From: Alphaproteobacteria bacterium
GTDB taxonomy: Bacteria; Pseudomonadota; Alphaproteobacteria; Caulobacterales; Aquidulcibacteraceae
Assembly: GCA_026400735.1 (NCBI GenBank)
Contig: JAPLOL010000111.1
Span: 1,680-65,679, forward strand
Reading direction: 5' to 3'
DNA: 64,000 bases
Part shown: one piece after another, positions 19,141-64,000 of the stretch
How positions within the stretch are numbered: the first letter of the stretch is position 1
Layout: every line of letters begins with the position of its first letter
Made by a program: the position numbers and the translations under genes
The notes under the pieces: generated by a model
The model's database searches: none
What the model saw: the letters and a program-made list of their open reading frames with translations, nothing else
Told to the model about the DNA's origin: nothing

Positions 19141-19143
19141 CGC

Positions 19144-20008: not shown

Positions 20009-20458
20009 ATGGACGCGCTAATCTCGACTGCGGGGCTTGGCTATTTCGTTGCTGTGGCCGCGGTGTTCATCGCCGCTCTGATCGCGAAGGCAGGCGCCGC
20101 ACGCGCGCCGAATGAAGAGCCCACGCGTCCAGGATTTGTGATGGCGTCTCTGGCTTTCGCGAGTGCGCTAACGCCCGCCGTGCTTGCGCTCTATGGCTAC
20201 TCGATCACTGCGGAAACTGGTCAGCGGATCGTGTTGATGGCGGCTCCAATTGTCGCCGGCTTTCTGGGGTCGATGGTTGGTGCGCTTATCGGTCTCGTCA
20301 CCCGTGATGCGCGGGTCATGTTTCGGATGGCGAGCATCGTTGCTGGCTTTGCAGCCCTGATCGTGGCCTTGGGTGTTGTGTTGCCTCGGGTCGACACGGC
20401 TTGGGCGGCCGAACAAACCGCCAAAATCGTAGGCGCTGCCGAAGCCCTGACCGACTAG
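20009..20458 (+). CDS. hypothetical membrane protein, paralogue 2 of 3
   Basis: A GGGAG Shine-Dalgarno precedes the ATG at 20009. The N-terminus MDALISTAGLGYF aligns with the upstream extension of paralogue 1, and there are four TM segments. Confidence 0.6.
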   Translation: MDALISTAGLGYFVAVAAVFIAALIAKAGAARAPNEEPTRPGFVMASLAFASALTPAVLALYGYSITAETGQRIVLMAAPIVAGFLGSMVGALIGLVTRDARVMFRMASIVAGFAALIVALGVVLPRVDTAWAAEQTAKIVGAAEALTD

Positions 20459-20548
20459 CGTCACGTAACTGCCGCGCCCGGTGAGTTAGCGACGAGCGGC
20501 GCCGTCGAATCTCTCCACAGGGGGCCGGCGCGCACCTATGATCGCTGC

Positions 20549-20989
20549 ATGCTGGAAGCGCTGATTCAGATCGTCGGGCCGATGTTTCTGTTGGCCATTG
20601 CGCTTGAGATGATCTCGGTCATGGTCGAGCAATGGGGCGCGGCGCGCTCACCCGATGAGGAGGCGCCAAAGCACAACGCGCTCGCCTTGCTGGCGCTGGT
20701 GCTGACGATTTTGACGCCTGGCCTGTTGCTCGCGCACGGCTACGTCTTAACGCACGGCCGGGATCAGACGTTGCTCGTGATCGCTTTGGGGCTGCCGATA
20801 GCGGCCGTGCTTATTGGGGCGCTGCTTGGTGCGATATTAGGTGCGGCTTTGAATGGAGCAGCGCCAGTCATGCGCAAACTCGCGCTGCCACTCGACATCG
20901 CCGCGTTCGGCGTGACGATCTATGCAACGCTCGCGACAATCCAGGCGCTGGTCCAAGCCGCACAAAACGGCGGCGTTGTCGCGCCCTAG
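20549..20989 (+). CDS. hypothetical membrane protein, paralogue 3 of 3
   Basis: SPDEEAPKHNALALLALVLTILTPGLLLAHGY aligns with PNEEPTRPGFVMASLAFASALTPAVLALYGY in paralogue 2. Confidence 0.6.
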   Translation: MLEALIQIVGPMFLLAIALEMISVMVEQWGAARSPDEEAPKHNALALLALVLTILTPGLLLAHGYVLTHGRDQTLLVIALGLPIAAVLIGALLGAILGAALNGAAPVMRKLALPLDIAAFGVTIYATLATIQALVQAAQNGGVVAP

Positions 20990-21903
20990 GCGGCTTGGCC
21001 GGCTTGGCGGAGCTTTTTTGTGACCATCAACGTAAGCTGTTGGGTCACCGTCTGCCGAATCTCGACTTGGTAGTTTGGCAGTTCAGCCAACTGCACGATC
21101 GAATCCAAATGCGCTTGCACCACATCGAGGTTCAGCGGTGCTTCGGCGCCCACACCCTTGATGTAATTGAAGAGGGATGAGGTCGCCGACATTAGCAGGC
21201 GATCCTTCATGTCGCCGGCAAGCGCGCTCAACTGGCCGCAGGTGAGGCCGAGATCACGCAGCGCAACGGCGTCTCCCGGTTTTAGCGCTCGCAGCAGAAC
21301 GCCAATGCGCTCGCAATACATACGCGCCAGGCCCTTGCGGATCTGCACATCCGGCGCGTCGGCTTGTTTGTCGTTTGAGTCGAACAAGCGGCGGCGCGGG
21401 CCGTCGTAGGCGTCGGCTGTAACGCGCCGACGTCGGCAAGGGCCAATGTAGCGCGTGCTTTCAACGAAATCGCGGCGCTTGGCGCGCACGTCAGCAATCC
21501 GCTTCCGAAGGGTCTGTGTCGAGAAGGGGCGCAGCACGAACTCATCGATGCCGACGTTGCGAGCGCGTTGCACGTCATTGGCGCTGTTGCGCGTCGCCAC
21601 CATGATGATCGCGAGCTTACGGAAGGCGTCGCCGGCTTCGCCCGCGCGTATGCGCTTCACTAGCGTCAAGCCCGAGCCTTCGTCGATGTCCCAATCAGCG
21701 ATCAGCACATCGGGCTGGCAATAGCTAAGCGCCATCAAGCACTGCTCAATGTTCTCGGCGTAATCGATTTGGGCCCGACCCGCGGCGCGCAGGGTCTCTG
21801 TCGTCAGCCGCCGCTGAAACGCAGATCCATCAGCCACAAGAATTCTGAGAACGGCTTGTTCAGCCGCGTCGTCCGTAAGCATGCCCGTCACCACGGAACG
21901 CAC
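20986..21903 (-). CDS. response regulator: receiver domain plus C-terminal helical (Hpt-like, His-less) domain
   Basis: It has REC motifs ILVADGS, LIADWDIDEGSG (phospho-Asp region) and IIMVATRN, followed by YIGPCRRRR and a roughly 110-aa helical tail. Confidence 0.75.
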   Translation of the reverse strand: MRSVVTGMLTDDAAEQAVLRILVADGSAFQRRLTTETLRAAGRAQIDYAENIEQCLMALSYCQPDVLIADWDIDEGSGLTLVKRIRAGEAGDAFRKLAIIMVATRNSANDVQRARNVGIDEFVLRPFSTQTLRKRIADVRAKRRDFVESTRYIGPCRRRRVTADAYDGPRRRLFDSNDKQADAPDVQIRKGLARMYCERIGVLLRALKPGDAVALRDLGLTCGQLSALAGDMKDRLLMSATSSLFNYIKGVGAEAPLNLDVVQAHLDSIVQLAELPNYQVEIRQTVTQQLTLMVTKKLRQAGQAA

Positions 21904-52594: not shown

Positions 52595-52660
52595 CGTTTT
52601 GGGCCACCGGCGCAGGGTGGCGGAGGGAGTGTCCGTCTAATTCCGTTGATTTAGAGACGC
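52595..52660 (+). repeat. cassette-array repeat, 5' half copy (copy 1 of 13)
   Basis: CGTTTTGGGCCACC...GAGTGTCCG..CTAATTCC..TTGATTTAG aligns with the 5' halves of the copies at 60161 and 57795. The 3' block is absent. Confidence 0.5.
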
Positions 52661-52826
52661 TTTTTGATTCCCGATATTTGTATCCACGGCGCTATCAACG
52701 TAATGCGCGCGAAAACGAGCGAACGGCCACGGCCTCCAACGAACACGCCGTGCCCCGCCAAAGCGAGCGTTGCAGGGTTAGCTGACATCGCGGATGTTGG
52801 CCCCTTCACCTCGGAGGGCGGAAATC

Positions 52827-53363
52827 ATGCGGCTGTTGGTTTGTCTGGCGGTGGCGCTGACTCTGGGTGCGTGCGCAAGCGCATGGAATGAACAGGCCGC
52901 GCAGGAGTGCTCAGAAAGGGGCTTCGCGGCGGACTCCGTCGATTACAACATGTGCGTCGCTATCAGTGTGAACGAGCGACGCCAGCGTTTTGCTACAGGG
53001 TTGCAGGCGGCCGGCCGAGCAATGAGCGCTGCTAGTGCTTCCACCACGCCGCCGCCCGCGGGTGCAGCTCTCTCAGCGCCACAGCAGTGTCCGGTCGGAT
53101 CGTATTGGTGGACAGATTCGTGGGGAAACCGGATTTGCAGACGCTTCTCAGATCAGAGCACCGCTACGGTGCAAGCTCCGGCAGGCCAACAATGTCCAAC
53201 CGGCTCATATCCATGGACCGATAGCTGGGGCAACTCGATATGCCGCTCCTTCGCTACGCCCGGCCAACCGACCACGGATTCATATGACACCTCACGCGGC
53301 TGTCCCGTTGGATTTCATGAATGGGTCGACAGCTGGGGCAATCGAGTCTGCCAACGCAATTAG
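52827..53363 (+). CDS. lipoprotein with three CPxG-x3-W-x-DSWGN-x2-C repeats
   Basis: A GGAGGG Shine-Dalgarno precedes the ATG at 52827, and the lipobox is MRLLVCLAVALTLGAC. The repeats are QCPVGSYWWTDSWGNRICRRF, QCPTGSYPWTDSWGNSICRSF and GCPVGFHEWVDSWGNRVCQRN. Confidence 0.6.
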   Translation: MRLLVCLAVALTLGACASAWNEQAAQECSERGFAADSVDYNMCVAISVNERRQRFATGLQAAGRAMSAASASTTPPPAGAALSAPQQCPVGSYWWTDSWGNRICRRFSDQSTATVQAPAGQQCPTGSYPWTDSWGNSICRSFATPGQPTTDSYDTSRGCPVGFHEWVDSWGNRVCQRN

Positions 53364-53380
53364 GAACTGGTCGGGCGCCG

Positions 53381-53494
53381 GGGTTGCCAACGCTCAGCGC
53401 AGCGCCATTCAGTCGCTCACAAGCGGCAGCTTTTGCGCATAAGCCCGCCACTCAAGCCGCTTCAGCCAGCGGCGCGAATTCGCCGATAGACGCC
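53381..53494 (+). repeat. cassette-array repeat, degenerate copy (copy 2 of 13)
   Basis: GGGTTGCCAACG..GCGCCATTCAGTCGCTCA...GGCGCGAATTCGCCGATAGACGCC resembles the family blocks, but it carries a roughly 30-nt insertion. Confidence 0.35.
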
Positions 53495-53521
53495 ACTCAC
53501 GTCCCGCCGCTCTTAGTCACG

Positions 53522-54364
53522 TCAAGTCGGCACGGGAGGGCGCGCAAGCCCCGTTGGGGCGGCATCTGTTTCAAATGCAACGTGTGCGCTGTCCGGCGTG
53601 GCTCCCATGCGGCGCTTTGCGTAGAGCAGCCATTGGTGACCACGGATCGCGGGCGGCTTCGCGACTGTGATCTGCAGGCGATGGCGTGCGAAGAGATTGC
53701 GCACGAACTGGACGTCATAAATGCAAGCGTTCGTGTTGTCGTTTGGGTTGATGTAGATGCAGTTTTGGAAGTCCTGCATCATTGGGAAATTGATCTTGTC
53801 GAACATGAACCAGGTGGAGCGAAGAACGCCGTCAACTGAGAGGCGCGTCGCGATCTGGTTGAAATAGTGCTCGAGGTCAGGCTCTGGGATGTGCGTGAAC
53901 ACCGAGTGCGCGTTGACAAGCGTGAAGCGCTCAAGGTCGGATCCGATCGTCGCTTGCTGTTTTCCGCCCGGATTGAACGTGTGGTGGAACGCGTCAAAAT
54001 GGCGAAATTCAAACCCTGGTCGGCGTAGATTCTCGCGGCTCCACTCAATTGACGGTCGGTAAAGATCAAGGCCTAGGTAGCGGCCTGGAACGTCCCTGGA
54101 TTGCAACATCATCTTGCGCGCGAGGCGGCCGCAGCCGCAGCCGAAGTCCAACACCGAGGCGTAATTTTCTGGTGGAACATCATTGCCAAACGCTAGATCG
54201 CCGTGTGGGTTTTCGAAGGAAGCATCATCTTCTACCCCAACATGTCGCCTTAGTTCTCGTGGCGGGAGTGGGAGATCAAGGCCGATCATGGTGCGAACGT
54301 AGCGGCCAGCCGCGGGCTTGCACAGAGCCAATTCCCGCGCGTTTCGCGCGGCATTAGGACCCAC
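53522..54364 (-). CDS. class I SAM-dependent methyltransferase
   Basis: It has motif I VLDFGCGCGRLARKM and the post-I acidic residue in YLGLDL. Confidence 0.8.
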   Translation of the reverse strand: MGPNAARNARELALCKPAAGRYVRTMIGLDLPLPPRELRRHVGVEDDASFENPHGDLAFGNDVPPENYASVLDFGCGCGRLARKMMLQSRDVPGRYLGLDLYRPSIEWSRENLRRPGFEFRHFDAFHHTFNPGGKQQATIGSDLERFTLVNAHSVFTHIPEPDLEHYFNQIATRLSVDGVLRSTWFMFDKINFPMMQDFQNCIYINPNDNTNACIYDVQFVRNLFARHRLQITVAKPPAIRGHQWLLYAKRRMGATPDSAHVAFETDAAPTGLARPPVPT

Positions 54365-54469
54365 GAGCAGCGTGCGATGGTTGAGCGATCATCATGCAAT
54401 AGGCTGCCCAAAGCGAGCAGCAACGTCCTCTAACGTCCGTGGCGCTGCCAGAAGCGCGGTGATGTCTGC

Positions 54470-54578
54470 ATTGGGCCATCGTACGACATAGCCGCGATTT
54501 TCGTGAGCGGCCTACTCGCTCCAAACCCGACAGTGATTTAGCGCACACAGCAACGGCGTGTCGTCGCCGTTAGCGGAC
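54470..54578 (+). repeat. cassette-array repeat, subfamily B (copy 3)
   Basis: The sequence is ATTGGGCCATCG...GCGGCCTACTCGCTCCAAACCCGACAGTGATTTAGCGCACACAGCAACGGCGTGTCGTCGCCGTTAGCGGAC. It is 52 nt from the CTC block to CGCCGT. Confidence 0.8.
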
Positions 54579-54657
54579 ATTCGCAAAAATGTTTTTCGAC
54601 CGCGACTGCTAGTTCGCAGCCTGGCGGCGTGCCAGCATAAATTCGCCGGGGGGCTTC

Positions 54658-55179
54658 ATGACGCTCGAACAAATTTCTGACGTGAGTCAAGCGGTGGCGG
54701 CTGTAGCGGTCGTTCTGTCTCTCATCGCACTCATCCAGGAGACGCGACAGAACACCAAGATGATGCGCGCGACGGCGGTGTGGGACTCGCAGCTCTCGTT
54801 CGTCTCGATCAATGAGACGCTGGCCGAAGGCGGCGTGCTGAGCGATCTGGCGTTCCGTGCGTTCACGGCGCACGAGAGCCTCACCCCATACGAGCGCCAC
54901 CTCTGGCATCGCTACATGCGCGCGGTTTTCCAACGCGTTGAAGCTCAATTCGCTCTGTACCGGAGCGGCGTTCTGGACGCTGAGGTCTGGGAGCTGCGCC
55001 GCAGCTACACGAAGTCGCTACTGCTTAACCCGCTGGTCGCGGAAATCTGGCGCTTGGAAAAGGGCAACTCGATGCTCACCAAAGCCTTCATCGCCGAACT
55101 CGAAGCCGCGCCCGCCGATGCGCCGCCCGTGTTCATGGGGCAAAGCAACGACGCGAAACCTGGGGAGGCTGCATCATGA
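54658..55179 (+). CDS. hypothetical N-terminally TM-anchored helical protein (paralogue A)
   Basis: MTLEQISDVSQAVAAVAVVLSLIALIQETRQN aligns with the N-terminus of the next gene. Confidence 0.55.
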   Translation: MTLEQISDVSQAVAAVAVVLSLIALIQETRQNTKMMRATAVWDSQLSFVSINETLAEGGVLSDLAFRAFTAHESLTPYERHLWHRYMRAVFQRVEAQFALYRSGVLDAEVWELRRSYTKSLLLNPLVAEIWRLEKGNSMLTKAFIAELEAAPADAPPVFMGQSNDAKPGEAAS

Positions 55180-55673
55180 CGCTCGAGGAAATCTCTTACG
55201 TTGGCCAAGCCGTCGCCGCCATCGCCGTGCTGGTCTCGCTCGCGGCAGTGTATGGCCAGCTGCAGCAGAACAACAAGATCGCACGCGCGGACCTGACGCA
55301 CAGCATTTGGCTAAGCGCGGGTGCAATGAACCTCTCCCTCTATGATACGCCGGAAAAGGCCGAGTTAATGCACCGGGCGCTCTACAGCACTGGGCCGCTC
55401 ACGGAGATCGAAAAGCTACAGATGAGAAGCGTTATCGGCGTTGCGCTCGGCGTTCACGAGGCGGCGTTTAATGCTCACAAGCGTGGTTTGATGGAGGACG
55501 GCGCCTACTCGACCCTCGAACAAGCAGCGCGCCTCTACTTGCTGAGCCCCTTTGTCCAACAATGGTGGGCGGAAGCCGGAAGGCGCGGTCACGATCCCGC
55601 CTACGTCACGCTCATGGACGAGATGGTCGTCAAGATCAATGCGAAGCGTAAGACGCGCGCTGACGGCGCATAA
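55176..55673 (+). CDS. hypothetical N-terminally TM-anchored helical protein (paralogue B)
   Basis: The N-terminus is MTLEEISYVGQAVAAIAVLVSLAAVYGQLQQN. An ATGA overlap with the previous stop indicates translational coupling. Confidence 0.55.
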   Translation: MTLEEISYVGQAVAAIAVLVSLAAVYGQLQQNNKIARADLTHSIWLSAGAMNLSLYDTPEKAELMHRALYSTGPLTEIEKLQMRSVIGVALGVHEAAFNAHKRGLMEDGAYSTLEQAARLYLLSPFVQQWWAEAGRRGHDPAYVTLMDEMVVKINAKRKTRADGA

Positions 55674-55714
55674 CTCAAGCAAAATGGATGCAACGACGTC
55701 TAGGGGAGAGGCGC

Positions 55715-56125
55715 ATGAAAATCGAAGGTGGTTGCTACTGCAAAGGCGTGCGCTATCGGGCCGATGGCGAGCCGATCGTGCGGGCGGAGTGTTTTTGCCG
55801 CGAATGCCAATACATCACCGGCGGCGGCAATCTCATGATGATCGCCATGCCCTCCTCCGGGTTTCAGATCACCAAGGGCGCGGTGAAGGATTACAAGCGC
55901 GCCGATCTGCCGAACGGCGTGACGCGCCAGTTCTGTCCCGAGTGCGGCACGCATTTGTTTACGCGCGCGCCTGGTTTCGAGATCGCCGTCATCATCAAGC
56001 TCGGCACTCTGGACGACCTCTCGCTCTATGGCAAAGCCGACAGCGCCAACTACATCTGCGACGCCCAGCCCTATCACCGGCTGCCGAGCGACATGCCGAC
56101 GTTCCAGAAGTGGATGCACGACTAG
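55715..56125 (+). CDS. GFA (CENP-V-like) family protein
   Basis: It has Cys clusters GGCYCKGV, CFCRECQ and CPECGTHL. This is the second GFA gene in the window. Confidence 0.8.
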   Translation: MKIEGGCYCKGVRYRADGEPIVRAECFCRECQYITGGGNLMMIAMPSSGFQITKGAVKDYKRADLPNGVTRQFCPECGTHLFTRAPGFEIAVIIKLGTLDDLSLYGKADSANYICDAQPYHRLPSDMPTFQKWMHD

Positions 56126-56127
56126 GG

Positions 56128-56208
56128 GCGCTGACCGGCAGACCCTCTCCAAAGTGGTCAGTCACTATGATCACCCCGGTACGGCCTGATCTCGCCGAAA
56201 ATGGCCGT
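56128..56208 (+). repeat. cassette-array repeat, 5'-truncated (copy 4)
   Basis: The sequence is GACCGGCAGACCCTCTCCAAAGTGGTCAG...CTCGCCGAAAATGGCCG. It is 52 nt from CTCC to CGCCGA and starts 3 nt after the GFA stop. Confidence 0.65.
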
Positions 56209-56217
56209 TCGCGCGCG

Positions 56218-57156
56218 TCAGCGGGCTATGCGTACGTTTTGCGCAATCTCGTTCAGGTGGCGATCCCAGGTCCCACAACACCCACCCCAAATGTCGATAT
56301 GCGGATAGCGCCGCGCGAGGTCACCCATGCGCGCACCAAGATCTTGAGGATCACCATCTTCCAGATGGCCGATCTTGCAGAGCTCAATCTTCTCCATCGC
56401 GCTGGCGTTGGGACGCAACATCCGCACGCGCTCCATCCACGCACCCGGCTCAAGCGTGGGCTCGAACTCCAATGGGTGTGAGCAATTGATGCCGTAGAAA
56501 TCCGGGCGCGCATCACCAGCTTCAGCGTCTGTCGATTCGATCGCTTGCTTTAGCGTCGGCCCGGACTTCAGCCTGTGATCGCTGTTGAGCGTGAACGACA
56601 CGTGCAGCGGAACGCCAATGCGCCGCGCCGCGCGTGCCACGCCCACCGCCTCCGGCACGTTGTTGAAAGTCATCGCGGTGGCGTAATCGACGCGGGCGCG
56701 CGAAAGCACTTCAAGTTGGAAGCTGTGATATTCTTCCGCTTCGTCAGCGCTGATCGTCTTGTTAAGTTGGTAAGCGTCGCCGCGAGGCCCGACCATGCCA
56801 CCGATAAATATCCTCGGAATGTGCCCCGCATACGGCGCCGCCACCTCGCGCAAAATGGCGATGCATTGCAGCAACGCATCCGCCAAACTTGCGCGCGAGT
56901 AGCCGAGTTTTTGGCCCCAATCCGGGCTGGCGCGATAGTCGAGCCCGGCCATCATCGGCACGAAACCGTGCGCGGCAGCGGCGTCTAGCACTCGCGCATA
57001 CATGCCGCGCAAATCCGCCATCGCTTGAAAATTGTCCAGCAACGGATACATCGCGAACTCGGGCAACTCGTGCCCGTGCTTGTACATGATCTCCGTCTCT
57101 TGGCCGCCTTCGGTCAGATAGAGAACGCCGGCTCGTTGATCTGGAAATCGCGCCAT
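56218..57156 (-). CDS. homocysteine S-methyltransferase family protein
   Basis: A GGAGGGG Shine-Dalgarno precedes the ATG at 57156. The N-terminus is VLYLTEGGQETE and the C-terminus has the zinc-site GGCCGT (WGGCCGTWDRH). Confidence 0.85.
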   Translation of the reverse strand: MARFPDQRAGVLYLTEGGQETEIMYKHGHELPEFAMYPLLDNFQAMADLRGMYARVLDAAAAHGFVPMMAGLDYRASPDWGQKLGYSRASLADALLQCIAILREVAAPYAGHIPRIFIGGMVGPRGDAYQLNKTISADEAEEYHSFQLEVLSRARVDYATAMTFNNVPEAVGVARAARRIGVPLHVSFTLNSDHRLKSGPTLKQAIESTDAEAGDARPDFYGINCSHPLEFEPTLEPGAWMERVRMLRPNASAMEKIELCKIGHLEDGDPQDLGARMGDLARRYPHIDIWGGCCGTWDRHLNEIAQNVRIAR

Positions 57157-57221
57157 AGCCCCTCCGCACGATGAAACTCTGGCCAAAACCTAGTCCAGTT
57201 AAGTAACGCCGCTCGGCGTCA

Positions 57222-57332
57222 GAATGGGGCCATCCTGCACCCTCGCGTAGAAAATCGCGAATGGCTTAGCCGCTCAAATTCTGCCGCCGGTAATGCTGCA
57301 TGAGCTAGGGCAGCCCATCGCCGAAAGCTGCC
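57222..57332 (+). repeat. cassette-array repeat, subfamily A-like (copy 5)
   Basis: The sequence is GAATGGGGCCATCC...CGCGAATGGCTTAGCCGCTCAAATTCTGCCG...GGCAGCCCATCGCCGAAAGCTGCC, with 52-nt spacing conserved. Confidence 0.7.
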
Positions 57333-57334
57333 AG

Positions 57335-57769
57335 TCAGCGGTGCACGTTGGGATCGTATTCCGTGTCTTCCGGAACGTCGGTCGGACTTTCGAAGTCGAT
57401 CTTGTAACCGTCCGGGTCATGGAAGCTCACAACCCATAACGTGTTTCCAACAAATGGCGTTCGCGGCGACAATCCGCTGGCCACCGCATCGCGATAAACG
57501 CGGAGCGCATCTCTACACATGAAGCAGACCGACACGCCTGATCCGAGTTCTCCTACCGGCGCGCGACCAGGCAAGTATTCCTGCAGCATCAAGGCGGCGC
57601 CGCCTGCCTCAAGCCTGCACCAACGGATATGGTCGGGCGCATCGGGCGTCCCCACAAGCTTTAGCTCGAAGCCGAGGCTATCGCGGTAAAAGCGCAGGGA
57701 CGCGGCCATGTCGCACACATGGAGGAACGGGACCGCCTGCGTGAGGTTTTCAGCGAGCGCACCGGCCAT
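57335..57769 (-). CDS. VOC family protein (glyoxalase/bleomycin-resistance fold)
   Basis: It is about 144 aa with LHVCDMAASLRFYRDSLGF and HDPDGYKI, typical of VOC beta-alpha-beta-beta-beta modules. Confidence 0.8.
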   Translation of the reverse strand: MAGALAENLTQAVPFLHVCDMAASLRFYRDSLGFELKLVGTPDAPDHIRWCRLEAGGAALMLQEYLPGRAPVGELGSGVSVCFMCRDALRVYRDAVASGLSPRTPFVGNTLWVVSFHDPDGYKIDFESPTDVPEDTEYDPNVHR

Positions 57770-57794
57770 TATGGATTCCCCAATCGCAGACTAC

Positions 57795-57896
57795 GGCCCG
57801 CCCACCCTTCAAATTACTCGAATGTCCGGCGCGCTCAATTCCTGCCGTAGATCACATTTGACAGGCTATGGCGTTTTCTCGCCGAAGGCGGTCATA
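57795..57896 (+). repeat. cassette-array repeat, subfamily A (copy 6)
   Basis: The sequence is CCCACCCTTCAAATTACTCGAATGTCCGGCGCGCTCAATTCCTGCCGTAGATCACATTTGACAGGCTATGGCGTTTTCTCGCCGAAGGCGGTCAT. It is about 85% identical to the copy at 60161. Confidence 0.85.
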
Positions 57897-57910
57897 AGGT
57901 ATGCTGCAAC

Positions 57911-58345
57911 ATGACAATGAACACCTTTAGACTCGGGGTTCGCGACTCAGCTGACTACGCCGCGTTGTTCGATGAGACCAAGGCAAAGATTCAACCCGCT
58001 ATCGGCGGTCAGCGTGCGACACCCGAGATGGGTGTAGTTACAATCGGCGAAGGCGATCTGGAATTCGAAGTCTGGCTTCCGTCAGATCGGGGCAGCCTTC
58101 CGCCAGCGCACGTTTCAACAGCAAAGTCGGTGTTAGGCCAGATCGTCCGTATGGACGACGAAGCCCGCGCCATTCCCGACATAATCGATTCAGACGAAAA
58201 CCTAGCGTGGGTAGCCATCAACGACGATGGCGTTGAATTCCATTACTTCGCGAACAGCGTGAGCTCGGAGTGGAGCGTTCTTTTCGCCATGGATGAAAAC
58301 GGTGTTTGGCGATGTCGAGGCATCAAGAAACCGACATCGGCGTGA
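57911..58345 (+). CDS. hypothetical cytoplasmic protein
   Basis: It is 144 aa with no signal or TM and coding-like composition. No family is recognised. Confidence 0.5.
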   Translation: MTMNTFRLGVRDSADYAALFDETKAKIQPAIGGQRATPEMGVVTIGEGDLEFEVWLPSDRGSLPPAHVSTAKSVLGQIVRMDDEARAIPDIIDSDENLAWVAINDDGVEFHYFANSVSSEWSVLFAMDENGVWRCRGIKKPTSA

Positions 58346-58353
58346 GTCCGCTC

Positions 58354-58460
58354 CGGGCCAGCGTGCGCCATCGACACGAATTTCGCGACTGGCCTACGCT
58401 CTCGATTGCGGTCAATCGCTTAGCGCCCGCAGCAACGGCTCGGTTTCGCCGATCGCGGAC
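58354..58460 (+). repeat. cassette-array repeat, subfamily B (copy 7)
   Basis: The sequence is GGGCCAGCG...GAATTTCGCGACTGGCCTACGCTCTCGATTGCGGTCAATCGCTTAGCGCCCGCAGCAACGGCTCGGTTTCGCCGATCGCGGAC, with 52-nt spacing conserved. Confidence 0.75.
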
Positions 58461-58586
58461 ACCCGGTCCGTGGGCGCCGGGGCATAGACGAGCAGGCAAC
58501 GCCCAGCTAACGGAACTCTCAAAGCATGTCGCGCTTCGGGCTCGGCGATTGAGCGCCGCATGATTGATTGTTCACAGGGATCAGCG

Positions 58587-59159
58587 ATGGATAAGTTCGA
58601 CTTCGTCTTGATCCTGCTGTCGTTCGCGTTTGCGATGGCGCTCGGACATCTGCTGACGGGCGTTGGCGCATTGATCTCGGCACGAGAGCGAGTGCGCTTC
58701 TCGCCTTTACTGGCACTGGCGATCGTGAACGCACTCGCACAGGTATTTATCGATTGGCTGAGCCTGTGGGATTATCGAGGCCTGCCGGAATGGGACCTCC
58801 TCACGGTCTCCGTGTTCTTCACCTTCCCGGTCGTCGTATACTTCATCTGTGTCGCCGCCGTCCCGGAAACACAAGGCGACAAGCCCATCGACATGGAGGC
58901 GTTCTATTGGAAGACGCGTCGCCTCTATTACGGCCTGTTCGCCTTGTTGATGCTGCTCTTCGCGGGCGCGGCGTGGACTCTGTTGCGGACGTCCACACCA
59001 GAACTCGCGCTGCAGCAGAGCCTCAGCAATCTGCCATTCTTGCTCGCTAGCCTACTCGCATTTTTCGTCTCCGCGCGCTGGGCTCAGTGGCTCGCCGGCG
59101 TCACACTGCTGGTGTTGAGCGTCGCCTGGCCAATCGTGTTCAGCAGTTCGATTCAATAG
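58587..59159 (+). CDS. hypothetical 6-TM membrane protein
   Basis: The ATG at 58587 gives MDKFDFVLILLSFAFAMALGHLL. It has six hydrophobic segments. Confidence 0.55.
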   Translation: MDKFDFVLILLSFAFAMALGHLLTGVGALISARERVRFSPLLALAIVNALAQVFIDWLSLWDYRGLPEWDLLTVSVFFTFPVVVYFICVAAVPETQGDKPIDMEAFYWKTRRLYYGLFALLMLLFAGAAWTLLRTSTPELALQQSLSNLPFLLASLLAFFVSARWAQWLAGVTLLVLSVAWPIVFSSSIQ

Positions 59160-59179
59160 TGGTTGCGCCGCTGATCGGG

Positions 59180-59278
59180 GAATGGTCAGCCACACCCCGC
59201 TTCGCGAATGGCTTAAAAGATCCAATTCAGACAGCGGCGCCCTGCCCACCCGACGGCTGACGTTCGCCGTTAGCGGAC
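59180..59278 (+). repeat. cassette-array repeat (copy 8)
   Basis: The sequence is GAATGGTCAGCC...CGCGAATGGCTTAAAAGATCCAATTCAGACAGC...GACGGCTGACGTTCGCCGTTAGCGGAC, with 52-nt spacing conserved. Confidence 0.7.
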
Positions 59279-59311
59279 GTTGGGCACACGGGTCTACTTT
59301 GGGGGCGGTGG

Positions 59312-60106
59312 TTAGTTGGCGCGCAACTGTGGTGGATCATTGACGGGATAAGACCTCATCGCTCGGCTCAAACTGGGTGTCGATACGTCGCCCAGGTAGG
59401 CATTCATGGCGGTCACATCGATGCGCCCGCTGGCGACTACGCCACTGTAACTTGCACAGTTTTCCACTGAACCGTCCAACATACCGAACATGCGCTCTGC
59501 CTCTGCCTCCTGAGAATGCTCGCGTGCGCGGGCCAGGACGATGCTGCGGAACTGTCTGTCTGTGATGACGGCGCGAAGGAAAGCACGCAGCCCAGCTTCA
59601 TTGTCTGGACTTAAGCGTTCATCGCCCGAGATGTCTGCCGACAAATCATTAGAGAAGTAGAACCTGCTGGTTTGAAACAAAAGCACGCTCGGCGTTCCAG
59701 CAAGACACCAAAGGCGCGTTGCCGGATCAAATGCGGTTTCGTCAAATTCGACCTGCTTTACGTACCTGTAGCCACCGGAAGCGCGTTGCGCTTCGAGAGC
59801 TCCAAACAGGGCGCTGAAATTTTCGAACATGGGGAGTTCGCGGACGACCATCGCCATTGGATCAGTTGTGAACACAGCAATATCGGTCGCGCCGATGGTC
59901 AGTGTGGTTCGCATCCGCAGCGTGGATGACTCAACGCGTATTACACTTTCGCACGCACCATCATCCGGAAAGACAACGCAAAGAGACCGCCCCTGGTAGG
60001 CCGTCTGGAGCTGGCTTGGCGTCAAATCCGCAATAGTCTCGCCTTCGCGAAGTGGGGCACTGCTCGCACAGCCAGAGAGAAACACTGCGATGATGAAGGC
60101 GCGCAT
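59312..60106 (-). CDS. hypothetical lipoprotein
   Basis: The ATG at 60106 gives the lipobox signal MRAFIIAVFLSGC. No domain is recognised. Confidence 0.55.
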   Translation of the reverse strand: MRAFIIAVFLSGCASSAPLREGETIADLTPSQLQTAYQGRSLCVVFPDDGACESVIRVESSTLRMRTTLTIGATDIAVFTTDPMAMVVRELPMFENFSALFGALEAQRASGGYRYVKQVEFDETAFDPATRLWCLAGTPSVLLFQTSRFYFSNDLSADISGDERLSPDNEAGLRAFLRAVITDRQFRSIVLARAREHSQEAEAERMFGMLDGSVENCASYSGVVASGRIDVTAMNAYLGDVSTPSLSRAMRSYPVNDPPQLRAN

Positions 60107-60160
60107 AGCCGGGGAACTTGCCCGGATTGCCCATTTGATTGCAAGCCGACCGGTGATGTC

Positions 60161-60274
60161 CGTTTTGGGCCAACCTACGCCCACCCATTAAATTACTCGA
60201 ATGACCGCCGCGCTCAATTCCTGCCGTAGATCACATTCGGCAGGCTACGGCGTGTTGTCGCCGAAAGGCGACAT
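60161..60274 (+). repeat. cassette-array repeat, subfamily A, most complete copy (copy 9)
   Basis: The sequence is CGTTTTGGGCCAACCTACGCCCACCCATTAAATTACTCGAATGACCGCCGCGCTCAATTCCTGCCGTAGATCACATTCGGCAGGCTACGGCGTGTTGTCGCCGAAAGGCGACAT. Confidence 0.85.
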
Positions 60275-60330
60275 CCGTCGTCAGAAGATTCCATTCTATG
60301 GTAGGCGCAGGGCAATCATCGGAGCGCCTT

Positions 60331-60615
60331 ATGAATCGTGCGGGCTGTGCAATCGCGCTTGTGGTCGCCTGTGTTGCATTGGGCGTCTTGATCCAGCTTC
60401 TCGTGGTGCCCCTGGCATTGGTCCTCGACGCAAGGAATTGGTGCTGGCCGGACTGTCCAAATCCAATGCGAAGTGCAGATCGAGATATTTCCCGTATCTC
60501 GCCAATTGTTCTGTTTATTATCGCTTCCGTCGGCGTGGTTCTGATCAGCCGGATGCCGGAAAAATCGGACGAGCCCACAAATAGCAGTGACCTGGGCGAT
60601 CCGGAGTCGCGTTAG
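60331..60615 (+). CDS. hypothetical small 2-TM membrane protein
   Basis: A GGAG lies 6 nt before the ATG at 60331. The product begins MNRAGCAIALVVACVALGVLIQLLVV, and the gene is visibly more AT-rich than the core genes. Confidence 0.45.
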   Translation: MNRAGCAIALVVACVALGVLIQLLVVPLALVLDARNWCWPDCPNPMRSADRDISRISPIVLFIIASVGVVLISRMPEKSDEPTNSSDLGDPESR

Positions 60616-60627
60616 ACGACCGTCTCA

Positions 60628-60730
60628 AATGGGCCAAGTTGCGTCGTGCGCTCGATTTCCACGACCGGCCTACTCTCTCCAAACTGGACAGTGATTTAGC
60701 GCATACGGCAATGGCGTGTTGTCGCCGATA
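60628..60730 (+). repeat. cassette-array repeat, subfamily B (copy 10)
   Basis: The sequence is AAATGGGCCAAGTTGCG...GATTTCCACGACCGGCCTACTCTCTCCAAACTGGACAGTGATTTAGCGCATACGGCAATGGCGTGTTGTCGCCGATA. Confidence 0.8.
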
Positions 60731-60765
60731 CCCGCCATTGCTCCGGGTGCGTGCAACGGGCTTGC

Positions 60766-61887
60766 TCACACGCCCGTCGCACGCACCCGAAGGTCGCTCT
60801 CCAACGCTTCGGCATCGGCGGGCAGCACGCCGAGTGTATCGCGCAGCCTGTTGAGCAGTGCGCGTTCCTTGTCGGATATAGCGCCCCCTTGAAGGGCCTC
60901 CGAGACGGCAGCCTCATAGACCTTTAGCTTACGAAAGGCAGCGTATTCTGGTGTGTCATGTGTGTTAGGCATCGCCGCGCCCGCCACGCGATCGGCGAAA
61001 CGTTGCAGCGGCGCCAAGAAGAAGACGACAATCGCAGCCGCTATAAGGCCTGCGAAGGCGCCAAACTCAGCCGAAAGAAATTGGTTTGCGCCTTCGGAAA
61101 TCACAAAGATGATCGCCACAACCGCAGCCGCGAGCGTCGACTGCTTGATCGTCCAGCGAATACGCAGATCGATGTCAAAGAGCTGACTTCGCAGAATGCC
61201 ATAAGCGATCAGGGGCACTGAAATCAGCGTGCCCAGTGTGTAAGCCATGAAACGCGGCGCAACGGGATCTGGGATTGCCTGATACGTGCCCGCGAGCAAT
61301 TCCCAAACAGCGTTGCCGTAAAGAAAGCCCCAACATAAATCGCGAATGCCAAAAGCGAGCGCGAATACGCCCGCCCGAACACGCGCTTCACCAACCGCTC
61401 CGCGCCACGCATCGACCGAAGCCACAAGCGCAAACGCGAAAAGGAGAGCCAGTGCGGTGTAGAGCAGCGAACCGCTGATGCGTAGCGGGCTAACTTGGAT
61501 CGCCACGAAGAGCGCGGTCGCGATAGCGGCAAGGCCAAACCGAATGCGTCCACTCTCGAATGGGCGCGTCATTTTTGTCTGCAATGCGGCGGTTAAGAAG
61601 GTCGGATAAAGCGCCAACATGGCGCAATCGCCCAATGTATGGACGATCATTTGCCAGTTGAAAAACTCAGGATAGCGGCCGTAGAGATCGGCGGGCGAAG
61701 TCGTCAGGTACATGACCGAGTCGCTAGTCCCGAGTGTCATGCCCTCCACAAAAAGCAGAAGCGCGAGCTTGCGCGCCACGCTGCCAGATGACCCGACCCG
61801 GTAAAGCACCACAGCCAGCGACCAGCACATCGCGATGGCGGCGAGTGTAAGAATCCCCCACAGGTCGGCTTGAAACATGATCAACAC
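60766..61887 (-). CDS. polytopic (about 8-9 TM) membrane protein with cytoplasmic helical C-terminal tail
   Basis: It is hydrophobic throughout. The C-terminal tail is EYAAFRKLKVYEAAVSEALQGGAISDKERALLNRLRDTLGVLPADAEALESDL. No catalytic domain is recognisable. Confidence 0.6.
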   Translation of the reverse strand: MLIMFQADLWGILTLAAIAMCWSLAVVLYRVGSSGSVARKLALLLFVEGMTLGTSDSVMYLTTSPADLYGRYPEFFNWQMIVHTLGDCAMLALYPTFLTAALQTKMTRPFESGRIRFGLAAIATALFVAIQVSPLRISGSLLYTALALLFAFALVASVDAWRGAVGEARVRAGVFALAFGIRDLCWGFLYGNAVWELLAGTYQAIPDPVAPRFMAYTLGTLISVPLIAYGILRSQLFDIDLRIRWTIKQSTLAAAVVAIIFVISEGANQFLSAEFGAFAGLIAAAIVVFFLAPLQRFADRVAGAAMPNTHDTPEYAAFRKLKVYEAAVSEALQGGAISDKERALLNRLRDTLGVLPADAEALESDLRVRATGV

Positions 61888-61936
61888 CTACCCTGAGCAT
61901 CGAATTCTTTCCATGAACGAAATCGCGCTTTGATCC

Positions 61937-62030
61937 CTTGGCCCGGACCGCTTACCGAGTGTCCCGCCAGCGCTGATCCTGCCGTTCACGCTCCCCGCTC
62001 TGCGAGGGCTGAAACTCGCCGAAAGCGGTC
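61937..62030 (+). repeat. cassette-array repeat (copy 11, first of a tandem pair)
   Basis: The sequence is CCTTGGCCCGGACC...CGAGTGTCCCGCCAGCGCTGATCCTGCCG...GGCTGAAACTCGCCGAAAGCGGTC. It is 50 nt from the CTG block to CGCCGA. Confidence 0.65.
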
Positions 62031-62104
62031 AAACCACTTCCCAAGCGAATGGCCGCAACACGCGCTCATTCAGCCGTCATGCAACGCCGTCTGAGCGAAA
62101 TCAC
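62031..62104 (+). repeat. cassette-array repeat, 3'-truncated (copy 12, second of the tandem pair)
   Basis: The sequence is AAACCACTTCCCAAGCGAATGGCCGCAACACGCGCTCATTCAGCCGTCATGCAACGCCG.... It runs into the stop codon of the FGE gene. Confidence 0.5.
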
Positions 62105-62866
62105 TCATAGGGCTCTCGCCACACGAAATCCGGTTGTGTTGTAACGGTCGTAGTCGAAGCTGGCGGACACGCTCGAAAATGGCAGGTCGTGCGGGAACTC
62201 GCCCCAGGAACCGCCACGCTTAACGCGGGCCGAGCAGATCGGCCTCTCGTCTTGGTAGCAATCTTCTAGTAGCTCCCAAACATTCCCGTGCATGTCGTAG
62301 AGCCCAAACGCATTTGGCTGGAATGAGCCCACGGGCCGCGTCCGCTCTTCAGGGCACCCGTTGAAGTTTGCGCCATTTCGCGCGCGCCGATCGCACACTG
62401 GGTCCTGGTCACCCCAGGAAAACCTCGTCGTCGTGCCCGCACGCGCCGCGTACTCCCATTCCGCCGACGTGAGCAGCCGATAATGCTGGCCGGTGAGCTG
62501 GCTCAGCCACTGCACATATTCTTGCGCTTGGTCCCAGGACACGTCGATCACTGGCCGCCGCCCGCGGCCCCAGCCATGATCGTTCGGATTGGGATTACTG
62601 ACGCAGCCTCCGCCGCGCACGCACGCCTCCCATTCAGCGAACGTCACCTCGTATCTCCCGATTGCGAAATCCGGCACACTCACCCGATTAATGGGGGGCG
62701 TGGCAAAATCCGGGTAAAATCGTCCGGCCATCATGAGTTGGCCGCCAGGAATCGCCACCATTTGGGGACACGCGCGACAATCTCGGAAGAGGTCGCCCGC
62801 GGAACGCGCGGACGATGAGGCGCATGCCGAAAGCAACACCGCTGCAACAAACAGAATTGCTCTCAT
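62105..62866 (-). CDS. formylglycine-generating-enzyme (FGE-sulfatase/SUMF1) domain lipoprotein
   Basis: The ATG at 62866 gives the lipobox MRAILFVAAVLLSAC. It has motifs LLTSAEWEYAARAG, MHGNVWELLEDC, RGGSWG and GFRVAR. Confidence 0.85.
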   Translation of the reverse strand: MRAILFVAAVLLSACASSSARSAGDLFRDCRACPQMVAIPGGQLMMAGRFYPDFATPPINRVSVPDFAIGRYEVTFAEWEACVRGGGCVSNPNPNDHGWGRGRRPVIDVSWDQAQEYVQWLSQLTGQHYRLLTSAEWEYAARAGTTTRFSWGDQDPVCDRRARNGANFNGCPEERTRPVGSFQPNAFGLYDMHGNVWELLEDCYQDERPICSARVKRGGSWGEFPHDLPFSSVSASFDYDRYNTTGFRVARAL

Positions 62867-62885
62867 GGCGCACCCCCTCAACGAG

Positions 62886-62988
62886 ATTCGGATTTGCGAG
62901 TGAGCCTAGGAGCATACGTCAACGGCGCAAGCAGATGCGCGGACGTTGATTTAGCGCACGCAGCAACGGCGTGTTGTCGCCGAACTCG
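62886..62988 (+). repeat. cassette-array repeat, subfamily B (copy 13)
   Basis: The sequence is CGGATTTGCGAGTGAGCCTAGGAGC...GGACGTTGATTTAGCGCACGCAGCAACGGCGTGTTGTCGCCGAACTCGGTC. Confidence 0.7.
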
Positions 62989-63091
62989 GTCCTCCGTAGA
63001 CGGCACAACATGGACACATCCGCGGCAACCATTCCTGCTTCAGTGGTGGGCAGGCATTGGCGTTTGCATTAAGCCCTGAAACGCGGCGCTC

Positions 63092-64000
63092 ATGCGACAC
63101 GTATTGGCAGACATACGCAACGTATTGGCGCCGCGAACGAACTGCAGCCAGGGCTGTGCGATCAGCCAAGGCGGTCCGGGCAGCGGCTCGGGTTTTGTCA
63201 ACGCCGGGGATAGTGCGACGGTCTTCGAAAATGGACGAGCGAAGATCGAACATGCGGGTGGGCGCACAATCTGTCGCATATCGGGAGATTTCCAATCGAT
63301 CGGCGAGGGAACTGTAGTGTTTCCCTCCGCGATCTCCGTAGCAGATGGTGTCTGGCTGTTGGGTCAACCGACTACCAATCGCGCCATACTCTTCGAAGAA
63401 CACGGCTGCTCATCTGTGCAATCAATTGTAGATCGCAACAGCGATCCCGTGTTCACGGATCCGGGCGGGCGAGTCTTCCTCATTGGGCCAGAGCTTCGCG
63501 ACGCTCACACCGGCAGGGTAATTTCCGCCAACCAATGCGACGCTCCTGGCGGGGCCGCAATCGCGAGTTCATCGTCGGTCATGGCAATCGCCTGCGGACG
63601 CGAATTGAACCTTGTCGACATTCGCAACGGCGAGACGCAACGCATAGATGCATTTCGAGATCTCGATGATGTCGTCGTTTCTAGTAACGGTCGGTATTTT
63701 CTCGCGCGATCGCATGGCGCCCTGCACCTTTTTGACCGGGACGGACGGTTCATGCGCACGGCAAATATCGGCTTTGCGCTCGCTCGGCTCACCGGCGTCT
63801 CCGATGACGGCGAGACCGGATACGTCATGATTGGGTCTTCGACAGGGTTGTCGATTTCGCTCCGGACGTTGTTCGCGCCGTCGCGTCAGACAAACCTCGG
63901 TATTTCAATCACGCGCGGGGACGCAGAAGACGAGACAAATCGCATCGTGCTCGATACGCCGGGAAACGTTGCCGTCGTTTGGGACACACGGGGCTGGCGC
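63092..64000 (+). CDS. hypothetical protein, 3' end outside window (possible beta-propeller-like repeats); start uncertain
   Basis: My own translation shows a frame open from the TGA at 63077-63079 to the window end (307 codons). It is absent from the ORF track because it has no stop. Candidate starts are ATG 63092, GTG 63317 and ATG 63581. The sequence includes ...ELNLVDIRNGETQRIDAFRDLDDVVVSSNGRYFLARSHGALHLFDRDGRF...NRIVLDTPGNVAVVWDTRGW. Confidence 0.4.
   Translation, partial: MRHVLADIRNVLAPRTNCSQGCAISQGGPGSGSGFVNAGDSATVFENGRAKIEHAGGRTICRISGDFQSIGEGTVVFPSAISVADGVWLLGQPTTNRAILFEEHGCSSVQSIVDRNSDPVFTDPGGRVFLIGPELRDAHTGRVISANQCDAPGGAAIASSSSVMAIACGRELNLVDIRNGETQRIDAFRDLDDVVVSSNGRYFLARSHGALHLFDRDGRFMRTANIGFALARLTGVSDDGETGYVMIGSSTGLSISLRTLFAPSRQTNLGISITRGDAEDETNRIVLDTPGNVAVVWDTRGWR

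Follow-up and report, generated by a model that had tools for sequence, protein, structure and literature searches.

The right-hand end of the window (the whole stretch of 64,000 nucleotides analyzed here, from an alphaproteobacterium of the Aquidulcibacteraceae, Caulobacterales; contig JAPLOL010000111.1) carries, beyond rlpA, a region of small genes separated from each other by copies of a non-coding repeat of ~121 bp. A full copy ends in two short sites, named Site L (left) and Site R (right), each with a 6-bp center (GGGCCA and TCGCCG, respectively). The copies, labeled c01 to c13, were detected with an nhmmer profile made from eight clear copies and then rebuilt from 28 full-length ones, and with position-weight matrices (PWMs) of the sites. 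The features of the region, with the open reading frames (ORFs) and Pfam families they rest on, are the following.

52616-52637, minus strand: 22-nt remnant of the 3' end of tRNA-Ser(TGA), the island boundary (att remnant) beside the rlpA promoter; from alignment to the intact tRNA-Ser of island-free relatives.
52595-52720, plus strand: c01 of the initial annotation, DNA flanking the tRNA remnant that may include a decayed core-like stretch; no nhmmer or PWM match.
52827-53363, plus strand: Module 0, a lipoprotein with three CPxGxxWxDSWGNxxC repeats; ORF and sequence, no Pfam family.
53468-53497, plus strand: c02, Site R only, center TCGCCG; PWM score 25.9.
53522-54364, minus strand: cassette, SAM-dependent methyltransferase; Pfam Methyltransf_23/25/12/11.
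54461-54581, plus strand: c03, full repeat, Site L 54461-54490 and Site R 54552-54581; nhmmer E=1e-29, PWM scores 35.4 (L) and 34.9 (R).
54658-56125, plus strand: three-gene cassette, two paralogous proteins of unknown function (54658-55179 and 55176-55673; repeat families D6, D8) and a GFA-family enzyme (55716-56125; Pfam).
56133-56209, plus strand: c04, short repeat, Site R 56180-56209 and no Site L; nhmmer profile positions 38-115, PWM score 35.9 (R).
56218-57156, minus strand: cassette, homocysteine S-methyltransferase family; Pfam PF02574, identical protein on a Logan contig that breaks at repeats.
57215-57335, plus strand: c05, full repeat, Site L 57215-57244 and Site R 57306-57335; nhmmer, PWM.
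57335-57769, minus strand: cassette, VOC/glyoxalase family; Pfam PF00903.
57790-57896, plus strand: c06, subfamily A, degenerate Site L, Site R 57867-57896; nhmmer, PWM.
57911-58345, plus strand: cassette, 144-aa protein of unknown family; ORF, Pfam scan.
58343-58463, plus strand: c07, full repeat, Site L 58343-58372 and Site R 58434-58463; nhmmer, PWM.
58587-59159, plus strand: cassette, membrane protein (listed ORF start 58560); ORF, sequence, Pfam scan.
59174-59281, plus strand: c08, degenerate Site L, Site R 59252-59281, the latter scoring as a Site L on the opposite strand; nhmmer, PWM.
59312-60107, minus strand: cassette, putative lipoprotein (listed ORF reaches 60184); ORF, sequence, Pfam scan.
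60155-60275, plus strand: c09, full repeat, subfamily A, Site L 60155-60184 and Site R 60246-60275; nhmmer, PWM.
60332-60615, plus strand: cassette, small membrane protein; ORF, sequence.
60619-60739, plus strand: c10, full repeat, subfamily B, Site L 60619-60648 and Site R 60710-60739; nhmmer, PWM.
60766-61887, minus strand: cassette, 373-aa polytopic membrane protein; ORF.
61950-62033, plus strand: c11, degenerate left part, Site R 62004-62033; nhmmer, PWM.
62030-62106, plus strand: c12, decayed partial copy, middle blocks only and no core, overlapped by the 3' end of the FGE gene; sequence.
62105-62866, minus strand: cassette, FGE-sulfatase-domain lipoprotein; Pfam PF03781, exact protein on Logan contig L001.
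62940-62994, plus strand: c13, short repeat, Site R 62965-62994, the last copy in the window; nhmmer, PWM.
63569-64000, plus strand: ORF running off the window end, with beta-propeller-like repeats read from the sequence.

Ten strong matches to the repeat profile (E values from 1e-29 to 1e-7) were found in the window between positions 54,469 and 62,993, and c02, at 53,468-53,497, was recovered only through the PWM of the 3' core. The resulting 11 copies span 53.47-62.99 kb, and all 11 core sites lie on the plus strand, as the initial annotation had it; its one copy per gap also holds for every gap between modules from 53.4 to 63.0 kb. Three of them (c04, c11 and c13) are 5'-truncated forms and c02 is reduced to the 3' core. 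About half of the cassettes run antisense to the repeats. The count of 13 copies given in that annotation must be lowered: 11 functional-looking copies stand, and two do not. One of these, c01 (52,595-52,720), gave no nhmmer or PWM match, its left block is homologous to the chromosomal DNA downstream of the tRNA in a relative (L148), and its TTTTGGGCCACC is chromosomal sequence adjoining the 22-nt tRNA-Ser(TGA) remnant. The other, c12 (62,030-62,106), is a degenerate partial relic that has lost its core and is matched by neither the profile nor the PWMs. The shared sequence blocks and the subfamilies A and B that had been described are real, and the methyltransferase, GFA, homocysteine S-methyltransferase, VOC and FGE assignments were all recovered. 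The 52 kb of housekeeping genes to the left, described as free of full copies, contains no genuine one by nhmmer or PWM scan; a weak match at 38.2 kb falls within coding sequence and was dismissed as a chance hit, the PWM background being 0-4 weak matches per shuffled window.

A closer comparison of the ends of the repeat, by means of gap-free logos of 41 left ends and 52 right ends, allowed the anatomy of the element to be read directly. Site L is AAYGTCCGCAAT-GGGCCA-GCGTGCGTCAT and Site R is AAYGGCGTGTTG-TCGCCG-AAAGCGGTCATT; each is a dyad of ~28 bp, and the two are inverted with respect to each other. Six positions (G5, C7, G16, C17, G26 and C28) are 90-100% conserved and fall at the same places in both sites, giving the shared pattern GNC-N8-GC-N8-GNC, a dyad with its contacts about one helical turn on either side of the center. 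The 6-bp centers are 97-100% invariant while the arms, which occur in two kinds (alpha and beta) in both sites, are variable. When matrices built from the arms only were exchanged between the sites, the L matrix scored the R sites at 6.2 in flipped and -2.1 in the same orientation (p=7e-9), and the R matrix scored the L sites at 4.3 and -3.5 (p=8e-7), with background sequence at -17 to -21. Since each matrix scores the other site far better when flipped, Site R corresponds to an inverted Site L. The two ends of the repeat consensus agree as an inverted repeat at 12 of 18 positions. The centers themselves are not equivalent: the flipped center of Site R, CGGCGA, differs from GGGCCA at two of six positions.

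The distance between the two centers is nearly fixed. The constant 52-nt spacing noted in the initial annotation is real, and even stronger when measured from GGGCCA to TCGCCGA across genomes: 24 of 34 full copies have 91 nt and 32 of 34 fall within 86-92 nt, despite interiors that are specific to each subfamily. In c09, for instance, GGGCCA starts at 60167 and TCGCCG at 60258. Conservation extends ~12 nt ahead of GGGCCA and ~13 nt past TCGCCGA. Along full repeats the order is R-cassette-L-interior-R; short copies begin near GACCGGCCTAC and retain Site R only, and the alternation is therefore not universal. A variant was seen at two places in one locus (L138, 9795-9930 and 12585-12720), where ~11 nt of Site R, comprising the left arm and spacer, are missing (...GCCAA followed by CCCCGAAGCG); by analogy with the fused dif modules of Acinetobacter, such decayed cores may mark fused cassettes.

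Single-sequence minimum-free-energy folds of the repeat DNA gave local hairpins only (z from -2.8 to +1.0 with respect to shuffled sequences), with no end-to-end hairpin. Complementarity between the L and R ends is 56% within copies and 56% between shuffled partners (z=0.3), i.e. there is no covariation, and neither the end-to-end nor the all-column covariation scan returned anything significant. Across all the folding work (DNA folds, RNAalifold on both strands, averaged base-pair probabilities and covariation scans) just a small CGGCG-N6-CGCCG stem appeared, for which the inner inverted arms of Site R are the better reading. A terminal pairing of ATGTCCGC with GCGGACAT was rejected, as it exists at consensus level only and shows no covariation. 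The repeats have no Rfam match, and a terminator and promoter scan gave no signal above shuffled or background sequence.

The same family was found outside the window, the loci compared being labeled with L-numbers. A genome collection was searched with an 18-mer, which gave mostly chance matches, and the 8-kb blocks around the listed matches were then profiled by nhmmer; a metagenome search used a 21-mer, and nine of its 16 matches, being glmS-like coding sequence, were set aside. Site R is best conserved in the 21-mer GCAACGGCGTGTTGTCGCCGA, which occurs by coincidence within a conserved glmS-like coding sequence of an unrelated abundant lineage (L122, L124, L127, L129, L134 and L137) and is a trap for k-mer searches. 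Single-orientation arrays are present in at least 13 other loci from Caulobacterales genomes and metagenomes. Among the genome-collection matches listed, they lie in metagenome-assembled genomes (MAGs) of a Caulobacteraceae member (three contigs: L029, L077 and L100), a Hyphomonadaceae member (L020, L031), a Terricaulis (L086) and an unclassified proteobacterium (L116); the metagenomes added L123, L130-L133, L135 and L136, and protein-guided look-ups L138, L153 and L154/L155. In 14 scored loci from at least eight genomes or metagenomes, 92 L or R sites were placed by PWM, with 100% uniform orientation at each locus, and the same scan found zero sites in five related array-free loci (~58 kb). 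In total the family is absent from ~110 kb of non-array DNA. Array edges are sharp (for example in L077, L100, L020 and L131), and the cargo is unrelated between arrays, bar a few shared cassettes. The profile search of related genomes that had been suggested thus returned single-orientation, sharp-edged clusters in 14 loci. No repeat match was seen in viral contigs or PLSDB plasmids, and full-text literature searches found no description of the family.

Exact-protein look-ups of the window genes returned only short Logan contigs (SRR20698650) broken at repeats: L001 and L002 carry FGE and homocysteine S-methyltransferase proteins exactly matching those of the window and begin or end inside repeats. 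Because the contigs break in this way, most short-read MAGs are expected to hold these arrays in pieces or to lack them. Some arrays contain or adjoin further genes. In L116 an IS30-family transposase (HTH_38 plus rve; 3821-4990, minus strand) is inserted just past the last strong repeat. In L031 two repeats enclose a full-length gene of the Sua5/TsaC type, which is normally a housekeeping gene (3587-4552, plus strand); either the segments between repeats are not all accessory or this is an extra gene copy. In L138, from a Caulobacteraceae MAG, the array region (2848-6068 and 12926-21422) also holds ParB-like, ArdC-like/MPTase-PolyVal, SSB, PIN/HTH and TIR_2 genes, a set typical of conjugative or integrative elements and defense islands.

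The places where homology between related arrays ends are informative in five pairs, two of them clean and three supportive but less precise. Between L123 and L020 identity is 100% for at least 257 nt from TCGCCG, falls to ~83% in the rest of the repeat and is lost beyond it. L029_4813 and L077_102, two copies from separate contigs of the same MAG, agree at 98% as far as TCGCCGA, and their flanks are unrelated on both sides. A 2.7-kb block of two cassettes, 94.6% identical between L138 and L029, ends directly after the GGCCA of Site L; the unusual left arm ACGACTAGAAT is common to both, the remainder of the repeat belonging to another variant. An AraC plus Rce1-like cassette (79% nucleotide identity) is common to MAGs labeled Caulobacteraceae and Hyphomonadaceae, bounded by repeats in both and with different neighbors, and its homology ends at GGGCCA. 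Finally, downstream of the orthologous integrase genes int414 and int411 (see below), homology continues across the left arm and the spacer of a Site R and ends inside the R center. Junctions therefore occur at both the left (GGGCCA) and the right (TCGCCG) center and not at a single crossover point. From these five comparisons it follows that an arm travels with the adjoining cassette, that the 91-bp interior is reassorted, and that the breaks fall at the two invariant centers. The breakpoints inside the repeat that the initial annotation had proposed to look for were found, since shared cassettes of related genomes lose homology within it. An apparent cassette polymorphism between L139 and L140 proved to be a difference in gene calling, the DNA being identical.

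The array lies next to rlpA. Its product shares 74% identity with the RlpA of Candidatus Viadribacter manganicus (hereafter Viadribacter) and 65% with the RlpA of Terricaulis silvestris, which marks the organism as an uncultured member of the Caulobacterales related to these two. The comparison of this locus that had been proposed separates relatives into three situations. Island-free relatives have an intact tRNA-Ser(TGA) beside rlpA (L148, 9716-9805; L144, 4358-4447). Closer relatives (L141-L145) have a P4-like integrase gene, int411, with an IS91 element at the rlpA/tRNA spot, and the RlpA of an int411-bearing relative is 91% identical to that of the window. In Viadribacter, rlpA is followed by a tRNA remnant, the integrase gene int414, Site R, a 240-aa gene, a repeat, two or three genes and another repeat, and then by a 245-aa gene, Site R, the convergent recombinase gene int336, six genes, Site R, the recombinase gene int337, toxin genes and a repeat; these repeats have the same orientation relative to rlpA as those of the window, and the cassettes are different. 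On the comparison of the rlpA/tRNA-Ser locus across relatives, the 52.6-64 kb region is all or part of an island integrated at tRNA-Ser, with its interior organized by the repeats, and the array or island continues or ends past position 64,000. The gap upstream of rlpA behaves as a tRNA-Ser(TGA) integration hotspot (window 52616-52637, minus strand; L148 9716-9805; L144 4358-4447; L141 3530-4765; L147 8465-9709); its P4-like integrases are 75% identical between two lineages, whose islands differ in cargo, one having IS91 together with a small tyrosine recombinase and the other (Viadribacter) the repeat array.

Two recombinase genes of the Viadribacter array, int336 and int337, encode XerC-like paralogs that are 73% identical. 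Each lies ~90 nt from a Site R, antisense to it, and both share a conserved leader, AGCGTCCGYTATG. The int336 product scores 401 bits on NF002331 (PRK01287 subfamily; cut-off 371) and stays below the cut-offs for XerC and XerD (TIGR02224, TIGR02225) and for integron integrases, the recombinases found reaching 133 and 181 bits on TIGR02249 (IntI) against a cut-off of 265. Its catalytic motifs are recognizable by eye. A 70% identical homolog in another family-level MAG has the same post-core tail by its stop codon, with two repeats 6.7 kb away. The association between XerC-like genes and the repeat is no more than suggestive. Searches by tblastn of the window and the array loci with approximate IntI1 and XerC query sequences gave no match. 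The XerC-like genes also adjoin polymorphic-toxin loci, with PT-HINT, EndoU and TIR_2 in Viadribacter (L153, 2313-9902) and RHS/YD-shell proteins with repeated C-terminal fragments next to the XerC-like gene in L154/L155 (L154, 1-10011); the recombinase may also, or instead, switch toxin cassettes.

Taken together, the anatomy, clustering, orientation and breakpoints of the repeats point to double-stranded site-specific recombination sites that would divide the tRNA-Ser island into exchangeable cassettes, a reading to which we assign a probability of roughly 0.55. In this scenario a tyrosine recombinase would bind the arms and exchange strands at the edges of the 6-bp center, which would act as the overlap region. 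The observation that homology stops at the invariant 6-bp centers is the pattern expected of such overlap regions; as the overlap must match between crossing partners, it would be frozen and the arms free to drift. Two overlap classes would exist, so that any L could cross with any L and any R with any R, and the mismatch between the L and R centers (2/6) would block inversion by an L-by-R exchange, which would account for the single orientation seen in each array. By crossing, two like sites in direct orientation would release one cassette and one repeat as a circle, and the reverse reaction would insert the circle next to any resident repeat. With both L-by-L and R-by-R exchange available, the 91-bp interior would be reshuffled with respect to the cassettes, as is observed. 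If sites of this kind are involved, the best candidates for the enzyme, at clearly less than even odds, would be the PRK01287-subfamily XerC-like proteins encoded as 'recombinase cassettes' beside Site R in Viadribacter, the alternatives being the P4-like island integrase, whose gene is directly followed by Site R, or the host XerCD.

Several points weigh against this proposal. No recombinase is encoded in the window or beside most visible array ends, the link to XerC-like genes consists of one genome and one partial case, and an 88% identical homolog (L151) has no repeat within 10 kb. Strong conservation of the centers with weak conservation of the arms is the reverse of what many tyrosine-recombinase sites show, although it is expected if all sites intercross. 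Some 50% of the cassettes point against the repeats, a 'cassette' of L031 holds the housekeeping-type Sua5/TsaC gene, and empty sites were not found. Just two of the junctions are clean, the other three being less precise, and breaks of this kind could also be produced by homologous recombination or template switching in the blocks of highest conservation.

Other explanations account for part of these data. The repeat could be a non-autonomous element, either a miniature inverted-repeat transposable element (MITE), a repetitive extragenic palindromic (REP) or bacterial interspersed mosaic element (BIME)-like sequence, or a palindrome-associated transposable element of the IS200/IS605-PATE-like type, spread into the intergenic gaps of horizontally acquired islands by DDE or by HUH/REP-associated tyrosine transposase (RAYT) activity; insertion would then possibly proceed from single-stranded DNA on one replication strand, and the mosaics would be ordinary homologous recombination between copies. 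We consider this unlikely. It fits the constant length, the imperfect terminal inverted repeats of 18-28 bp, the hairpin potential of the interior, the uniform orientation at each locus, as with strand-biased insertion, and the pair of copies that lie on two contigs of a single MAG, are 98% identical and share neither flank; the layout also resembles that of E. coli BIME-1, or RIP, which consists of two inverted REPs and a fixed linker. However, direct repeats of 3-8 nt flank at most one of 34 copies in any register, i.e. target-site duplications are lacking, no empty sites were found, and the copies are extremely clustered, one per island gene module and none outside in the loci scanned. The 52-kb core contains GGGCCA 23 times with no element attached. 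The inverted ends are inherited with the adjacent cassettes and not with the interior, the opposite of a transposing unit, the left and right flanks of a copy reassort separately, folding is not significantly more stable than that of shuffled sequences (z from -2.8 to +1.0) and the hairpins show no covariation. No transposase, RAYT or HUH gene was seen in the array loci examined, the IS30 (L116) and IS91 (L141) elements looking incidental. A specific version, in which the interior inserts 3' of GGGCCA in IS200/IS605 style, was rejected in view of the conserved flank 3' of Site R, the lack of empty sites and the 23 unused core GGGCCA. The MITE-type alternative offered in the initial annotation thus fits by half, in the anatomy (terminal inverted repeats of ~18-28 bp), though not in target-site duplications or in the inheritance of the ends. 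A fixed element that serves regulation or protein binding (as a nucleoid-protein, gyrase or insulator site, or as a bidirectional terminator), carried by island genes and with no role in mobility, is very improbable: dyads at a fixed 91-bp spacing would suit any pair of dimeric DNA-binding proteins, and the repeats occupy nearly all the intergenic space and abut stop codons, but their orientation is uniform whatever the direction of the genes, they are confined to variable islands, the breakpoints of shared cassettes lie at the centers of the sites, and neither a terminator signal above shuffled controls nor an Rfam match was obtained.

Recombination of other kinds has also to be weighed. Small integrative elements might have accreted in tandem through a P4-like island integrase of the int414 family, with Site R as an attI-like dock and the XerC-like genes as cargo. 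The short repeat that starts a few nucleotides past the stop codons of int414 and int411, and ends in the left arm and spacer of Site R, speaks for it, as do the end of the homology downstream of both genes inside the R center and the nature of the whole region, a tRNA-Ser island being the usual home of such integrases. The att core of this family, the 3' end of tRNA-Ser, nonetheless bears no relation to Site L or R, int411 islands have no array, and the array of the window, like most others, has no such integrase at its visible ends; this accretion seems to us improbable. A canonical integron, or an attC-site cluster that has no integron integrase (CALIN), with the repeats as attC sites folded as single strands and IntI encoded past the window, is the least credible of all and can hardly be correct. 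Small, mostly orphan cassettes with one repeat each would agree with it, and two inverted 'simple sites' around a variable middle recall the classical description of the 59-base element. The conserved triplets, on the other hand, are GNC and not AAC/GTT (AAC or GTT occurs in few copies only), the centers being GGGCCA and TCGCCG; minimum-free-energy folds contain no end-to-end hairpin, and the 56% L-R complementarity equals that of shuffled partners, with no covariation. Crossovers lie at both ends of the repeat, against the single point inside R' that is expected, and some 50% of the cassettes are antisense. At 133 and 181 bits on TIGR02249 (cut-off 265), the recombinases detected are not IntI, and IntI1 had no tblastn match in the window or the array loci. 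Neither integrons, In0 elements nor CALINs were found in 243 alpha-proteobacterial genomes (PMC4889954). Hence the initial annotation's cassette array is supported by the single-orientation, sharp-edged clusters of 14 loci, their differing cargo and the breaks inside the repeat, whereas its integron/CALIN membership is not, given the lack of AAC/GTT boxes, end-to-end hairpin, within-copy covariation and IntI and the antisense half of the cassettes; its remark that this 'may be a different system' is judged the best summary.

The nearest relatives of a site-specific cassette array of this type are, in our best reading, the dif modules of Acinetobacter and the integrons. The dif modules are known mainly from Acinetobacter plasmids, their mechanism is still debated, and we know of no other cassette system on Xer-type sites. 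They use 28-bp two-arm sites with a 6-bp spacer in alternating orientation, with exchange between identical spacers (PMC13141974), and enclose small accessory modules of one to three genes that move as pairs of adjacent modules (PMC13141974; PMC6449649). The present sites likewise have two arms, 28 bp and invariant 6-mer centers, R and L alternate along the array (R-cassette-L-interior-R), and the breakpoints fall at the centers. The array described here is, in contrast, chromosomal, in tRNA-Ser islands and other Caulobacterales loci; every second 'module' is a non-coding filler that holds the centers 91 bp apart, which gives the appearance of a 121-bp repeat in one orientation; only two spacer classes exist, one per orientation; the sites are GC-rich; and putative dedicated XerC-like genes lie within arrays, where Acinetobacter relies on the host XerCD. 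Sites L and R do not seem to resemble the dif site of E. coli.

Integrons are the textbook bacterial route to stockpile and reshuffle single genes. With them and CALINs the arrays share a single recombination site for each cassette, a cargo mainly of orphan genes and small stand-alone enzymes, one orientation per array, cassettes common to genomes in different contexts and, in the case of CALINs, the lack of an adjacent integrase. They differ in having no AAC/GTT boxes, folded bottom-strand hairpin or covariation, in their two crossover sites per repeat and ~50% antisense cassettes, and in that no IntI was found and no attI/Pc platform identified. Elements of the MITE/REP/BIME type (E. coli BIME-1/RIP, and REP doublets forming hairpins, or REPINs, with RAYT) are similar in their ~120 bp, their non-coding and strictly intergenic nature, their inverted terminal sites and their fixed-length linker; here, unlike there, target-site duplications and dispersal are lacking, orientation is uniform at each locus, the ends segregate with the flanking genes and no RAYT or transposase partner is seen. 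With the tandem accretion of integrative and conjugative elements (ICEs) and cis-mobilizable elements (CIMEs) at tRNA genes the region has in common the tRNA-Ser island, the P4-like integrase in relatives and directly repeated sites between modules, but the repeats inside it have no relation to the tRNA att core and the modules (0.5-1.6 kb) have no element backbone.

As a tentative extension, which we regard as possible though short of probable, Viadribacter/Terricaulis-like Caulobacterales might have an independently evolved analogue of integrons, based on double-stranded 28-bp Xer-type sites with two mutually incompatible overlaps, GGGCCA and TCGCCG, 91 bp apart and on dedicated XerC-like recombinases (PRK01287) that travel as cassettes; the pair of recombinase paralogs would then possibly match the two types of arm. 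The lack of integrons, In0 elements and CALINs in 243 alpha-proteobacterial genomes was called 'extremely puzzling' (PMC4889954). If the analogue is real, it could explain arrays of orphan genes in a class reported without any of the three. It would also be a second, independent case of cassette arrays on double-stranded core sites, on the chromosome of free-living Caulobacterales and with a simple design rule (identical 6-bp centers permit any-to-any exchange, and the L/R mismatch forbids inversion), and a class of arrays likely to escape attC-based tools such as IntegronFinder. The short, well-defined sites and the candidate enzymes would be fit for a recombination assay.

Some minor features of the region and its relatives deserve mention. 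The Module 0 lipoprotein (52827-53363, plus strand), which has no Pfam match, carries three tandem cysteine-framed motifs, CP(V/T)G(S/F)xxW(T/V)DSWGN(R/S)(I/V)C. The paralogous genes of the three-gene cassette (54658-55179 and 55176-55673, plus strand) are ~70% identical in DNA (D6, D8), and the stop of the one overlaps the start of the other by 4 nt. Near the window end, the listed ORFs at 62951-63828 look spurious, and a fragment at 63483-63510, CATTGGGCCAGAGCTTCGCGAC, just upstream of the 63569 ORF, resembles a truncated left module of the repeat, although it fails the Site L matrix. In L148, ARAGORN reports an odd 99-nt 'tRNA-???' with a 4-base anticodon (14281-14379, plus strand) between tatD and a metallo-beta-lactamase-fold gene.

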